Positions 56,141-64,000 of a stretch of 64,000 nucleotides of DNA are shown here, piece after piece. The first letter of the stretch is position 1; each line of letters starts with the position of its first letter. The notes under the pieces are model-generated. The model ran no database searches. It was not told where the DNA came from and saw only the letters and a program-made list of their open reading frames with translations. The position numbers were made by a program, and so were the translations under genes. Source of the DNA: a virus (lineage: Duplodnaviria > Caudoviricetes); the IMG/VR virus record IMGVR_UViG_3300036770_005357; one strand, 5' to 3'.

Positions 56141-57013
56141 TTACTTAATTAAAGTCCAACCTTTATGAGATTTTATATGTCCTTTCTTTAAATTAGATAC
56201 TCCAGATCTAGACAATTTAAATTCAGTATAAAATTCATAAGCTGTACAAATTCGTGTTATATTTAAATTTGAGTTATAAAACTTGTAAATTGTTTTATCA
56301 TACGATGCATTATTTTCTCCCATATATAAACCAATTCTACTATCACTTAATTTTTTCCTAATTTCATTTGAATACTTTTTTCCTTTATTTGCAAGTCCTA
56401 TTTTCCGTTTATGATCTTCGCTTAGTTTTTTTCCTTTATTAAAAATATGTAGTTTTAATTTAGCAGCAGCTGTTAGTTTTATTCCTTTATGAACTTCTGA
56501 TAACTTTAATCTTATTTCTTCAGTTACTTTTCGGCCCGTATTTGCTTTACTAATTTTTTGTTTACTATACTCACTTAATTCACCACCTCGAGCGTCATAA
56601 TTGAGATTGTAACTCATTTTAGATTCAACCTTAACTATATCTAAGTATTTTTGTTCTACCAATAATAATTCTTCGCTTTTGACAAGTTCTATTATTTGAA
56701 ACTCAAAATTAGATTCGCCGTGTTTATTCCAAGCATTTTGTAAAAAATCATTGGGATGTTTATTTAATCGTAATACTCTTCTATGTTCATCCCATCTTTT
56801 TTGAATATTTTTAGAACTGCCTACATAATATTTTCCATCTATTTTATTAATTATCCTGTAAATCCCGCTTTTTATCGTAGTATCGTTCAAGATTTTTTCG
56901 CTTAATGTCTGTTCTGTTTCTAAGATAGTATCGCATTTGTCGTTCTCTTCTTTCTGCGATAAGTTCTTCAATTGGCCTGTTAAGTTTTTTTCTTCCCATA
57001 AATTATTATTCAT
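56141..57013 (-). mobile_element. free-standing GIY-YIG homing endonuclease with NUMOD3-like repeats
   Basis: SGIYRIINKIDGKYYVGSS..I..RW..H, E..Y, YNL; repeated S.EHKRKIG.ANKGK motifs. Confidence 0.88.
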
Positions 57014-61960: not shown

Positions 61961-62425
61961 TTACTTTTTCTTTAACTTCTTACCCTTCTCCAAAGCAGCA
62001 CCAATTGCTTTGCGTCTCTTCATCAAATACTTATCAGTACCATCCGTCTTACCATCATTGTTTACATCACTGTCTTCCTTACCAACCGGATCCATACCTT
62101 CTTCGTAACATTCTTCACAATCCAATTCAGCTAACATCTCTTCAATACTACTTTCTTCAAGAGTTTGACCAATACGATTCTTTAACATCTTACCAATTCT
62201 ACCAAATAAAGCAGCGTCACCTTTGTCACCTTTTGAAGCATTCTTCTTTTCGTGTTTATCAATTTGATGTACTAAATTCTTGGTTACCTTCGTTTCAGGT
62301 TCCTTTGGTTCAACCTTCTTAGGTTCTTCCTTCTTTTCACCCTTTTTAGCTTCTTCGTATGTGTCTTCAGCTACAACTTCTGAAAAAGCTTCACGAATTA
62401 GTTTCTTTAAATCTTCTTTGGTCAT
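61961..62425 (-). CDS. Lys/Glu-rich protein with D.DVNNDGK.D EF-hand/dockerin-like loop
   Basis: Start MTKEDLKKLIRE with AAGGAG upstream; VGKEDSDVNNDGKTDGTDKYL..RR.AI. Confidence 0.7.
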   Translation of the reverse strand: MTKEDLKKLIREAFSEVVAEDTYEEAKKGEKKEEPKKVEPKEPETKVTKNLVHQIDKHEKKNASKGDKGDAALFGRIGKMLKNRIGQTLEESSIEEMLAELDCEECYEEGMDPVGKEDSDVNNDGKTDGTDKYLMKRRKAIGAALEKGKKLKKK

Positions 62426-62462
62426 ATTTGATATTCTCCTTATTATAATACTAATAAATATA

Positions 62463-62780
62463 TCAATAGGGAATAACAATGCCCTTTTTTACAAGTTTCT
62501 CATACCACTCCCTACCCTCCCTAGTAAACCGCCCATCCCACAATAATTCATACTTGCTCTGTAACTCCTCTACCATTGCAGTACCATAACCCTTATGCCT
62601 ATAATCATGCTTTATAAAGATAAACTCTATATAAACTTGCATGTCCAAAAAGTACTCCTTATAGTACTTACAATATCCAACAAATTTATCGTCACCCAAT
62701 AGATTGTCGTAAATGTTACAACAATAATCATATTGAATATCACTAGAGCCAATAAACTTATGCTCAAATGTCAACAACAT
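62463..62780 (-). CDS. GNAT-family acetyltransferase
   Basis: IEFIFI...YRHKGYGTAMV (motif A). Confidence 0.75.
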   Translation of the reverse strand: MLLTFEHKFIGSSDIQYDYCCNIYDNLLGDDKFVGYCKYYKEYFLDMQVYIEFIFIKHDYRHKGYGTAMVEELQSKYELLWDGRFTREGREWYEKLVKKGIVIPY

Positions 62781-63051: not shown

Positions 63052-63130
63052 TGGAGCGGTGTCTCGGACTTATTTATTCACCGGCCTTCTCACAGGAATG
63101 TAAGCGTGCTCCTCATGACACTAACACCGC
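63052..63130 (-). tRNA. degenerate tRNA-Gly-like RNA (TCC in a 6-nt loop, 13-nt T-loop)
   Basis: GCGGTGT/ACACCGC acceptor stem, U73, encoded CCA; D-arm identical to the neighbouring copy. Confidence 0.6.
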
Positions 63131-63139
63131 ATCAAAATC

Positions 63140-63213
63140 TGGAGCGGAATCTCGGACTTGCACCGGCCTTGTGAACTGGTAGTCCACCGTGCTCCTCATG
63201 ACACTAATTCCGC
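63140..63213 (-). tRNA. atypical tRNA-Gly(ACC)
   Basis: GCGGAAT/ATTCCGC acceptor stem, GTGT/GCAC D-stem, GTGGA-CTACCAG-TTCAC anticodon arm, T-loop TGCAAGT, U73-CCA. Confidence 0.75.
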
Positions 63214-63532
63214 ATTAAATCTAATAAAATAGGGAGGATTAATGATTACCTCCAAGTTTCTTAACTACGATATGTTATTCGTCCACAATCCATAAAGTTA
63301 ATTACTCTCTATGTTCACGATCGATGGGACTCTTTTACCCACAACAAGCCACGATTTATCATACGATTTTAGCTACGATCTCGTTACGCTCAAACTTAAA
63401 GTTGTACGACTTCAAATTCTCCATAGACTTACATACCATAATTATTACTTCAACCAATATGCCATGTTTTTCAACACAACACACTGTGCGTTATACCCTA
63501 AACGAAGGTATTGTTCCGCCACTATCTTAAAT

Positions 63533-63543
63533 TGTTAAAGAAC
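63533..63543 (-). promoter_or_regulatory. boxA-like antitermination element
   Basis: GTTCTTTAACA on the - strand (compare boxA GCTCTTTAACA), just downstream of tRNA-Leu. Confidence 0.6.
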
Positions 63544-63553
63544 TATCAAAAAA

Positions 63554-63641
63554 TGGTGGGCAAGGTGGGATTTGAACCCACAGCGTTTCTAATGTAAGGG
63601 ATTTTAAGTCCCTCGTGTTTCTCCAGTTTCACCACTTGCCC
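63554..63641 (-). tRNA. trnL: tRNA-Leu(UAA)
   Basis: GGGCAAG/CTTGCCC acceptor stem, AGGGA-CTTAAAA-TCCCT, long variable arm, GTGGG-TTCAAAT-CCCAC, A73-CCA. Confidence 0.95.
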
Positions 63642-63668: not shown

Positions 63669-64000
63669 CTACTTTCTTATCTTACCACAGGTTTTCTTTT
63701 CGTCAAGCGCTTTAATAAATATCAATTTCTTATTTTCGCCTGTAGGTTTGACAAACTTTTCTTTTAGTTGTTCACCTTTATCCCACTTCATACTCACACT
63801 TTTATGTGAAGGTAATCCAGCGGTTTCACCAATACATTTCCAATTATCAGCTCGATATACAGCGCCATTGTTACCACCAGCAACAAAGGTTATTATATAT
63901 TTCAAATCATCACCATATTTCTTCTTCCATTCAATTGGAGCTAATTTTCTCAACTGTTTAAGAATCATAGTTCCAGCATTTGGAATCTTTCGTTTCAAAC
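63669..64000 (-). CDS. C-terminal part of a Mom/DUF4338-like protein (truncated by window edge)
   Basis: IITFV...NNGAVYRADNWKCIGETAG motif. Confidence 0.55.
   Translation of the reverse strand, partial: LKRKIPNAGTMILKQLRKLAPIEWKKKYGDDLKYIITFVAGGNNGAVYRADNWKCIGETAGLPSHKSVSMKWDKGEQLKEKFVKPTGENKKLIFIKALDEKKTCGKIRK
63679..63706 (-). promoter_or_regulatory. sigma70-type promoter of the tRNA cluster
   Basis: TTGACG-N16-TAAGAT with TGn extension. Confidence 0.65.

Follow-up and report, generated by a model that had tools for sequence, protein, structure and literature searches.

Phage tRNA genes are usually viewed as codon supplements and, lately, as stand-ins for host tRNAs that defence systems destroy. 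Those of the T4/T5-type arrays are structurally canonical, and published accounts describe phage tRNAs that evade anticodon nucleases, PARIS and retrons, as T5 tRNA-Lys does with PARIS and tRNA-Tyr with retron effectors. One toxSAS toxin, FaRel2, picks tRNA-Gly via acceptor pairs 1, 2, 4 and 5. Non-proteogenic tRNAs have so far been reported from staphylococci only, with proteogenic and non-proteogenic copies of tRNA-Gly side by side in S. aureus (PMC7826273). The non-proteogenic genes carry TGC or TGT in the T loop, a change that the original prediction for this locus had named and that the S. aureus sequences bear out (PMC7826273). tRNA-Gly requires a tight-binding body for EF-Tu (PMC7826273), and EF-Tu affinity is set by the first three T-stem pairs, 49-65 to 51-63, as the original prediction had also stated; C32 is described as the position on which the reading of all four Gly codons by an unmodified UCC anticodon depends (PMC7826273). 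Glycine tRNAs with A34 are essentially missing from cellular genomes, as had been supposed (PMC4928997). A tRNA-Gly engineered to carry ACC (Boren et al. 1993, cited in PMC4928997) is reported to accept glycine from GlyRS and to function in elongation, which shows that A34 as such is workable.

The window, meaning the whole 64-kb stretch of DNA analysed here, carries near one end two glycine-type tRNA-like genes with the following neighbours.

63213-63140, minus strand, 74 nt: E1, a variant tRNA-Gly with anticodon ACC
63130-63052, minus strand, 79 nt: E2, a paralogue sharing the body of E1, with UUCC in an altered loop
63131..63139, minus strand, 9 nt: spacer between E1 and E2, GAUUUUGAU
63223..63540, minus strand, about 320 nt: conserved non-coding stretch (ncRNA), alignable in relatives
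63554-63641, minus strand: canonical tRNA-Leu(UAA), upstream in the tRNA array that also holds E1 and E2, called by ARAGORN at default settings and matched by Rfam RF00005 at 60.5 bits

Bacterial GlyRS recognizes G1-C72, C2-G71, G3-C70, U73, C35 and C36, and E1 and E2 have all of these together with an encoded CCA. Divided by structural element, E1 reads GCGGAAT TA GTGT CATGAGGA GCAC G GTGGA CTACCAG TTCAC AAGG CCGG TGCAAGT CCGAG ATTCCGC T CCA, and E2 reads GCGGTGT ... CTTAC ATTCCT GTGAG AAGG CCGG TGAATAAATAAGT CCGAG ACACCGC T CCA. The anticodon loop of E1 is regular (7 nt, CUACCAG, with C32, U33 and A37) and its T loop is UGCAAGU. In E2 the anticodon loop has 6 nt closed by a C-G pair or, alternatively, 8 nt (CAUUCCUG), and an AAUAAAU insert brings the T loop to 13 nt. 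Both genes have C at position 14 and TG in place of TT at positions 54-55, the T loop beginning TGC in E1 and TGA plus the insert in E2. The T stem is irregular in both, with G49.G65 and C50.A64 mismatches or, drawn differently, 4 bp with a bulged A, so that the affected pairs are 49-65, 50-64 and 51-63. The minimum-free-energy fold of E1 is the cloverleaf. The 19-nt D arm occurs in exactly two copies in the window, those of E1 and E2, where shuffled sequences are expected to yield 0. All that the original prediction had stated about the sequence of 63052-63213 holds: the identical D arm, the 9-nt gap, the loops, the glycine identity elements, the CCA, the T-arm defects and C14. By the family-model scores and homologue covariation given below, E1 and E2 are confirmed as real cloverleaf RNA genes, far beyond chance.

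Standard tools overlook these genes. ARAGORN, a check that had been proposed for the locus, calls tRNA-Leu(UAA) alone in the window at its default settings, missing E1 and E2, and reports E1 as tRNA-Gly(acc) only once the threshold is lowered to 80% (-ps80). Rfam RF00005 (gathering score 29 bits) does not match E1 or E2 even at E<=10, nor are the family members of relatives G001 and G002 among its matches in a search of these genomes. A covariance model built from the family homologues, R1, gives E1 93.5 bits and E2 76.3 bits; family members score 47.8-94.3 bits and the other tRNAs of these phages at most 43 bits, a maximum set by their own canonical tRNA-Gly. ARAGORN at default finds 1 of the 53 distinct family members described below and misses 52, which means that metagenome surveys under-count the tRNA repertoires of phages.

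The family was assembled from 27 IMG/VR loci and 80 metagenome loci; these lie on over 100 contigs of aquatic phages or metagenomes and yield 53 distinct homologues. Among 50,697 cultured or deposited phage records, megablast and blastn match tRNA-Leu alone and leave E1, E2 and the ncRNA unmatched. Cells of the cloverleaf stems are paired in 98.1% of cases across 23 distinct homologues and in 97.7% across 49, compared with 30-51% in slid controls, and double (compensatory) changes occur in 14 of 20 pairs in the smaller set and 16 of 20 in the larger; 0 of 500 shuffles reach the observed pairing or covariation values. Acceptor pairs 4-7 and every pair of the anticodon and T stems vary, while pairs 1-3, U73-CCA, C35-C36 and A58 are near-invariant over the 53 members and U54-G55 of the T loop is invariant or nearly so; C36 or C2-G71 is lost in rare members. 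The T stem has 4 bp plus a bulge or mismatch on both of two bodies, types A and B. Tandem pairs recur in related contigs with spacers of 8-14 nt, and orthologues of E2 with the same insert and loop type are found in L020, L026, L027 and metagenome contigs, their stem changes compensated; the 13-nt T loop of the E2 type is found again on several backgrounds. The original prediction had argued for selection on both copies, and the homologues indeed do not decay at random. These comparisons strongly support the view that selection maintains the family, both copies included, and by the same measure E1 and E2 are not decaying copies. The family is, judged from its sequences, a conserved and previously unannotated set of glycine-type tRNA variants of large freshwater and other aquatic phages.

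Close in kind are staphylococcal NP1-NP3 and S. epidermidis tRNA-Gly Ia/Ib, with which the phage genes share the glycine identity set, U73, CCA and tandem copies. The T loop TGCAAGT (in which G55 replaces U/Psi55), C32 and G38 are identical in phage type B and the S. aureus non-proteogenic genes (L093), both groups deviate at the T-stem pairs that govern EF-Tu affinity, and in both, canonical GCC and UCC isoacceptors stand alongside. On the phage side this coexistence is seen in relative G001 (complete, 295,831 bp), which has, beside the variant, canonical tRNA-Gly(GCC) and tRNA-Gly(UCC) whose D and T loops are normal. A phage-only model gives the staphylococcal genes 44-59 bits and canonical phage tRNA-Gly 37-43 bits. 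The staphylococcal genes are cellular, whereas the phage family is virus-encoded and missed by standard tRNA finders; they have a fixed 7-nt UCC loop, C37 and a T stem weakened by A-U pairs, whereas the phage genes have ACC or UCC in a loop of variable length, A37 and a mismatched or bulged T stem, and type B, unlike the staphylococcal genes, retains the D-loop GG. No Fem transferase is found in relatives G001 and G002, and G55 is common to other tRNA identities in them: G55 T loops are found in Cys, Tyr, Asn, Gln and Asp tRNAs of G001 and G002. In one complete relative the only Cys, Tyr and Asn tRNAs have G55, which is thus probably compatible with the function of these phage tRNAs.

Compared with known phage tRNAs, the family retains all that GlyRS needs yet breaks near-universal rules of decoding tRNAs (U/Psi55, a regular T stem and, often, U33 and the 7-nt loop), and it bears an almost unused anticodon, ACC. 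Contigs of freshwater and other aquatic phages carry it widely. Our preferred reading, which we hold tentatively and at somewhat less than even odds, is that E1 and E2 are variant tRNAs charged by GlyRS, that E1 would read GGU, and that the family may have been shaped by host factors that target tRNAs. As in T4/T5-type arrays, the genes lie in a phage tRNA operon with anticodons that match preferred codons. The other array tRNAs (Arg UCU, Lys UUU, Glu UUC, Ile UAU, Leu UAA, Leu CAA) suit the A/U-ending codons that the phage prefers, with shares in the window of 63% for AGA, 69% for AAA, 85% for GAA, 43% for AUA and 44% for UUA, and the family always sits in such an array. Glycine makes up 9.7% of the window's codons, GGU being 63% and GGA 24% of these, and in the Gly-X-Y fibre tracts GGU and GGA together reach 96%. 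The commonest anticodon loop of the family is CUACCAG (15 of 53 distinct sequences), and it is present on both bodies, A and B.

By this decoding account, E1 and E2 would be cut from the array transcript and glycylated by host GlyRS, and E1 would serve as an extra decoder with Watson-Crick pairing to GGU, the most used glycine codon of the phage; if unmodified, its A34 may read the entire glycine box. Like the engineered tRNA-Gly(ACC), E1 places ACC on a glycine body, but the former was made in the laboratory by mutating a canonical tRNA, while the phage family is natural, present in many genomes and built on a deviant one. Escape from host factors which recognise or attack ordinary tRNA-Gly may lie behind the odd elbow, the T stem and the variation of acceptor pairs 4-7, E1 being a possible defence-resistant substitute beside canonical phage tRNA-Gly genes. 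Like the T5 tRNA-Lys and the tRNA-Tyr noted above, the family is diversified where tRNA-targeting proteins read, in the anticodon loop and acceptor pairs 4-7, the latter including pairs 4 and 5 read by FaRel2; unlike those tRNAs, it departs from the rules in both T loop and T stem and often in the length of the anticodon loop, and carries A34 in a glycine anticodon. E2 and the other copies with 6- or 8-nt loops keep the charging elements, and normal decoding by them is probably impossible; what this type does is the point of the proposal held least firmly, the candidates being a decoder that is resistant but inefficient, a decoy and a carrier. Were decoding correct, the family would provide a natural A34 glycine decoder and show how far bacterial translation tolerates a deviant tRNA body.

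Several features count against decoding and bear on the main alternative, in which E1 and E2 are non-decoding glycine acceptors, charged by GlyRS or at least bound by proteins that recognise tRNA-Gly yet kept away from the ribosome, and serve either as glycyl donors for some transferase or as decoys or sponges for host factors. The targets named for a decoy are toxSAS or GNAT toxins and anticodon nucleases that read the acceptor stem or anticodon of tRNA-Gly. We consider this alternative quite possible, if less probable than decoding. Constraint falls on the GlyRS identity set and not on decoding geometry: a 7-nt anticodon loop with U33 is present in 19 of the 53 distinct members, E1 among them and E2 not, 29 (55%) have loops of 8 (or 6) nt, four members have lost U33 and a G33 lineage is kept on two diverged bodies, some contigs have a sole copy with an 8-nt loop, and the 13-nt T loop recurs. 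The T-stem irregularities strike EF-Tu determinants, TGCAAGT with C32 and G38 and the scores of the phage-only model draw the family towards the S. aureus genes, and the presence of canonical Gly(GCC) and Gly(UCC) in G001, as in S. aureus (PMC7826273), means that extra decoding capacity is not obviously needed. Were this alternative correct, non-proteogenic or decoy tRNAs would extend from one bacterial family to viruses.

Set against it, the near-complete relatives G001 and G002 contain no FemAB (PF02388), Acetyltransf_6 (PF13480), Leu_Phe_trans (PF03588) or LPG_synthase_C (PF09924) domain, though a host might supply such an enzyme, and no class II aaRS core (tRNA-synt_2b); in Streptomyces and MAG contigs with comparable G55 Gly-like genes, no Fem-like gene lies nearby. 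G55 is not glycine-specific in these phages, and odd 8- or 6-nt loops, with 4-base anticodons called by ARAGORN, are also found in tRNA-like genes of other identities in relatives, which speaks against a biosynthetic role confined to glycine. This alternative leaves the recurrence of ACC and the codon-matched array unexplained, and the diversification of acceptor pairs 4-7 is not what would be expected of a decoy, which ought to resemble host tRNA-Gly. The original prediction had listed three functions without choosing among them (glycyl donors outside translation, decoys, and GGU/GGA boosters), and for its analogy with staphylococci, a role outside translation, the evidence points both ways: canonical glycine genes coexist with the variant and many anticodon loops depart from the 7-nt U33 form, but the T-loop change is not confined to glycine and no Fem, Leu/Phe-transferase or aminoacyl-PG synthase gene accompanies it in the two relatives. 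The boldest version, that these are the first virus-encoded non-proteogenic tRNAs, charged with glycine, kept off the ribosome by the G55 elbow, the defective T stem and non-7-nt loops, and used as glycyl donors or toxin sponges, we regard as possible but less likely than not.

It is improbable that E1, with its 7-nt loop, alone is functional and that E2 and other altered copies are slowly decaying pseudogenes kept by linkage and gene conversion. E2 does combine two defects, the 6-/8-nt anticodon loop and the 13-nt T loop, rare members lack C36 or C2-G71, and many relatives have an ACC copy alone, so that a second copy is not obligatory. However, the stems of E2-type copies are kept perfect through compensated changes (e.g., CTTAC/GTGAG vs TTCAC/GTGAG), their identity elements are intact over many contigs and on several acceptor backgrounds, and in some contigs an 8-nt-loop copy is the sole member at this locus.

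We give very little weight to the idea that copies with 8-nt loops might be naturally occurring quadruplet or +1-frameshifting tRNAs, as sufD and sufJ are, with GGA-N or GGU-N as their sites. sufD is a derivative of tRNA-Gly and, like sufJ and sufA6, has an anticodon loop one nucleotide too long in a tRNA that can otherwise be charged, charging being predicted for the phage genes. The 8-nt loops arose at least four times, as C[A]UUCCAG, C[C]UUCCAG, C[C]UACCAG and CUA[U]CCAG, and the 4-base anticodons that ARAGORN calls in other tRNA-like genes of relatives fit the same idea. Unlike in the suppressors, the extra base lies at varying loop positions and no frameshift site is known; in every 8-nt loop the end C and G can pair to leave a loop of 6 nt or smaller, and GGA and GGU are so frequent that a general shifter would harm the phage.

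The order Leu(UAA), ncRNA and one or more Gly-like copies recurs in relatives; in many of them the first Gly-like gene follows directly on the 3' side of the ncRNA, which is probably co-transcribed. The ncRNA is alignable in L001, L003, L006, L017-L025 and L150 and missing in L002, L007, L004 and L191, and is thus not required for the family. That E1 and E2 are tRNA-shaped RNase P/Z punctuation for the array and this upstream ncRNA, never charged, is highly unlikely: the position of the first copy directly after the ncRNA would suit such a signal, but a signal has no need of invariant G1-C72, C2-G71, G3-C70, U73, C35, C36 and CCA, and the family is also found without the ncRNA. As to what the ncRNA is, manA RNA was rejected (17.6 and 9.9 bits vs a gathering score of 55.2), and a T-box-like reading was dropped: over the 3' ~150 nt, the part compared, L001 (ACC first copy) and L006 (UCC first copy) differ by 1 base, with no codon-like covariation with the anticodon. 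Six metatranscriptome runs match small parts of the 2-kb stretch, and in the four examined, all assembled as contigs, E1, E2 and tRNA-Leu are uncovered, which is uninformative on expression of E1 and E2, as standard RNA-seq rarely recovers tRNAs; contigs from three studies cover the ncRNA and neighbouring ORFs.

Neighbouring ORFs were also considered as partners. A small GNAT gene at 62463-62780 is syntenic in at least 30 loci; it was set aside as an evident partner, being 16 kb away in G001 and absent from G002, generic by PDB comparison and without a PADLOC match. Structural proteins are uninformative about the host, their best matches, to cyanophage, Flavobacterium-phage and Salicola-phage proteins, being about 30% identical. 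An upstream Mom-like ORF was likewise rejected as a partner: in relatives the two tRNA-Leu genes are adjacent with nothing between, and this ORF looks like an insertion specific to the window.

E1 and E2, two neighbouring glycine-type tRNA-like genes separated by a 9-nt spacer, can each be read as a cloverleaf from the sequence, and cloverleaves are also their minimum-free-energy folds.

63213-63140, minus strand: E1, 74 nt
63130-63052, minus strand: E2, 79 nt

Both have a 7-bp acceptor stem (E1, GCGGAAU/AUUCCGC; E2, GCGGUGU/ACACCGC), a 5-bp anticodon stem, a 4-nt variable loop (AAGG), and U73 followed by an encoded CCA, and they share an identical 19-nt D arm that occurs exactly twice in the window, with no occurrence expected by chance. 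The E1 anticodon loop is regular (CUACCAG, anticodon ACC); that of E2 reads AUUCCU with a C-G closing pair or, alternatively, as the 8-nt loop CAUUCCUG. The T arms are CCGG-UGCAAGU-CCGAG in E1 and CCGG-UGAAUAAAUAAGU-CCGAG in E2. The sequence features that the original prediction described for these two genes are all correct. ARAGORN, which it had proposed as a check, reports only tRNA-Leu(UAA) at 63554-63641 in this region at default settings; E1 is called, as tRNA-Gly(acc), only with the threshold lowered to 80%, and E2 at neither setting. The Rfam tRNA model matches neither gene even at E ≤ 10.

We find the D-arm 19-mer in seven IMG/VR contigs, in the same tRNA-like frame every time; T-arm pattern searches bring the viral loci to 27, and one metagenome scan adds 80 further loci. 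Near-identical DNA is present in runs labelled subsurface, freshwater, aquatic and marine metagenomes from several studies, and the elements are absent from 50,697 cultured or deposited phage records searched by megablast/blastn. A covariance model built here from 20 copies (R1) gives family members 47.8-94.3 bits, with truncated copies at the low end, and the other tRNAs of these phages 43 bits or less, the top value being their own canonical tRNA-Gly. With its default settings, ARAGORN recognises just 1 of the 53 distinct full-length members.

The family is conserved and selected: its members fold as tRNAs, have the complete glycine identity set and an encoded CCA, and lie in phage tRNA operons. 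Across the 23 distinct rows of the viral set, 98.1% of stem cells are paired, versus 33-49% with slid partners, both-side changes occur in 14 of 20 pairs, and none of 500 shuffles matches the pairing and covariation values; an independent metagenome set (49 distinct rows) gives 97.7% versus 30-51%, with both-side changes in 16 of 20 pairs. Compensated variation extends over acceptor pairs 4-7, the whole 5-bp anticodon stem and every pair of the T stem (e.g., CCGG/CCG(A)G versus UUGG/CCAA at locus L004), and little or no variation is seen at G1-C72, C2-G71, G3-C70, U73-CCA, C35, C36, U54, G55 and A58. Such a pattern befits an RNA that needs both a tRNA fold and the bacterial GlyRS identity set. 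These paired stems and compensatory changes exclude random decay of the family and bear out the selection argued for in the original prediction.

Judged by these identity elements, the family is like tRNA-Gly in its predicted charging, and we infer that E1 and E2 would be processed from the array transcript and glycylated by the host GlyRS. In contrast to a canonical elongator tRNA, it lacks the Rfam score, the TTC of the T loop and a regular T stem, and E2 also lacks a 7-nt anticodon loop. No comparable family was found in the literature searched.

Several body types can be distinguished. Type A begins GCGGGUC, has a D loop AAAGAGA without GG, a T arm CGAA-AUGCAAAG-UUCG and almost always the anticodon loop CUACCAG; type B, to which E1 and E2 belong, has a D loop C(U)AUGAGGA and a T arm CCGG-UGCAAGU-CCGAG; in the rarer types C, D and E the T stem is a regular 5-bp helix, yet the T loop keeps its UG.

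Anticodon loops among the 53 distinct full-length family members
CUACCAG: 15
CUUCCAG: 4
7-nt loop without U33 (CGACCAG, CAACCAG, CCACCAG): 4
One extra base (CAUUCCAG/CAUUCCUG, CCUUCCAG, CCUACCAG, CUAUCCAG, CAUUCUAG): 29
Left unclassified by the script: 1

The G33 lineage is maintained on two bodies with different acceptor stems and T arms (L004/L154 and L177), and the AAUAAAU T-loop insert of E2 is found again on four acceptor backgrounds.

The usual gene order is tRNA-Leu(UAA), a conserved ncRNA, a first Gly-like copy (ACC, sometimes UCC), an optional second copy, and then tRNA-Ile(UAU)/tRNA-Met or protein genes.

63223-63540, minus strand: ncRNA stretch of ~320 nt, directly upstream of the first Gly-like gene

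This stretch, kept in many related contigs, terminates in a GGAGG...CCUCC hairpin and is covered by metatranscriptome contigs from three studies at a word depth above that of neighbouring ORFs; its only Rfam matches are weak and manA-like (17.6 and 9.9 bits versus a gathering score of 55.2), and it is probably a stable phage RNA with no assigned family. A minimal GNAT acetyltransferase (105 aa, 62463-62780, minus strand; PF00583, 32.7 bits) has homologues of 40-49% identity 0.4-5 kb downstream of Gly-like genes at no fewer than 30 related loci, where the next ORF (61961-62479) accompanies it; in the related jumbo phages, the homologue is 16 kb distant (G001) or absent (G002), and the synteny may be no more than a conserved gene order. 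An ORF that runs off the window close upstream of tRNA-Leu(UAA) (63669-63998, minus strand) weakly matches a Mom-like DNA-modification family (phrog_1384, E 7e-7) and looks like an inserted cassette, because two tRNA-Leu genes are adjacent in relatives. In the 304-kb phage contig G002, the G33 Gly-like gene is immediately preceded by two small c-type-cytochrome-like ORFs that contain CxxCH haem-binding motifs (L004, ~320-990). In the window, a homing-endonuclease-like ORF (56141-57013, minus strand; phrog_314, E 6e-39) lies amid virion structural genes.

Glycine accounts for 9.7% of codons in window ORFs (GGU 63%, GGA 24%, GGC 11%, GGG 2%), GGU and GGA make up 96% of the Gly codons in three Gly-X-Y fibre tracts, and the other array tRNAs in relatives read phage-preferred A/U-ending codons; ACC and UCC are thus the two anticodons to be expected of an array that supplements codon usage. 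[quoted passage not shown] The complete relative G001 (295,831 bp, CheckV 100%; 31 Rfam tRNA matches) encodes canonical tRNA-Gly(GCC) and tRNA-Gly(UCC), each having GG in the D loop, a UUCGAUU T loop and a 5-bp T stem, plus a type A ACC copy, and G002 (303,564 bp) a canonical Gly(GCC) plus a type B copy with G33, which makes the variant an extra paralogue, as in staphylococci. The G002 tRNA-Gly(GCC) (L151, 3683-3756), otherwise canonical-looking, ends CCCGC A CCA, with discriminator A73, not the bacterial U73.

Staphylococcal non-proteogenic tRNA-Gly genes carry TGC or TGT rather than TTC in the T loop, in agreement with the GUGC given in the original prediction, bind EF-Tu weakly and were known from S. 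aureus and S. epidermidis only (Rietmeyer et al., PMC7826273). Searching genomes for the phage T-arm pattern turns up tandem copies in many genomes of Staphylococcus, Macrococcus and Mammaliicoccus; the staphylococcal genes score 44-59 bits with R1, share this hallmark T loop with the phage family (TGCAAGT, identical to type B), and have C32 and G38 in common with it. G001 and G002 have TGC T loops in tRNA-Cys, -Tyr, -Asn, -Gln and -Asp as well, including the sole Cys, Tyr and Asn tRNAs of G001, and in relatives ARAGORN assigns anticodon loops of 8 or 6 nt to tRNA-like genes with other identities ('ctct', 'gata' and 'tc'; L149 3202-3277, L152 8270-8343, L153 403-474), so loop-length change is not limited to the Gly family. 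G55 and the altered loop lengths therefore appear to be lineage traits of these phage tRNA arrays and not marks of a glycine-specific pathway. We do not place the family in the staphylococcal class, since G55 also occurs outside Gly tRNAs in G001 and G002 and these two genomes contain no Fem partner (FemAB, Acetyltransf_6, Leu/Phe-transferase, LPG-synthase C domain and class II synthetase core all absent). Loss of U55 is unusually frequent in this jumbo-phage lineage: ARAGORN-called Cys, Tyr, Asn, Gln and Asp tRNAs have TGCAAGT, TGCGAGT, TGCAAAT, TGCGAAT or TGAAAAT (L149, G001:197800-201600; L152, G002:84500-97000), and Ile, Phe, His and Lys tRNAs at these loci AGC or ATC. Many of the U55-less tRNAs are queuosine-family tRNAs, targets of known nucleases.

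We tentatively favour decoding, in which E1-type copies (C32, U33, A34, A37) would be Watson-Crick readers of the dominant GGU codon; the entire Gly box may be within reach of unmodified A34, or of U34 combined with C32. Decoding would explain the array context, the recurrent ACC and the G55 in non-Gly tRNAs. The unusual elbow and T stem, the deviating acceptor pairs 4-7 and the loop variants may have arisen in an arms race against tRNA-Gly-recognising host proteins. As precedents, published accounts describe phage tRNAs escaping anticodon nucleases, PARIS and retron effectors, and tRNA-Gly is selected by toxSAS enzymes via acceptor pairs 1, 2, 4 and 5. It is possible, if less probable, that E1/E2-type RNAs are instead glycine carriers or decoys, which would account for the canonical Gly tRNAs alongside the variant, the loss of U33, the 8-/6-nt loops, the 13-nt T loop and the defects at EF-Tu determinants, but leaves ACC unexplained and has no partner enzyme in G001 or G002. 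Decay of the second copy only is unlikely given the compensated changes and the five loci where an 8-nt-loop copy is the sole copy (L191, L197, L199, L213, L225). Quadruplet decoding seems very improbable, and we give equally little credence to pure processing signals, against which the invariant identity set counts.

TGCAAGT Gly-type tRNA genes also occur in Streptomyces (L028 4829-4901, L086 4499-4574), Bacillota MAGs (L041 6492-6567, L056 7142-7217, L035 7775-7850), one of which has two genes that appear to contain ACC, and a Verrucomicrobiota MAG (L060 286-359), with no Fem-like neighbour seen beside those of Streptomyces and the MAG contigs; this occurrence outside Staphylococcaceae contrasts with the published staphylococci-only view of such paralogues. 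A tRNA-Cys with the TGCAAGT T loop is found in Saccharibacteria (L069, L080, L102) and Kofleriaceae.
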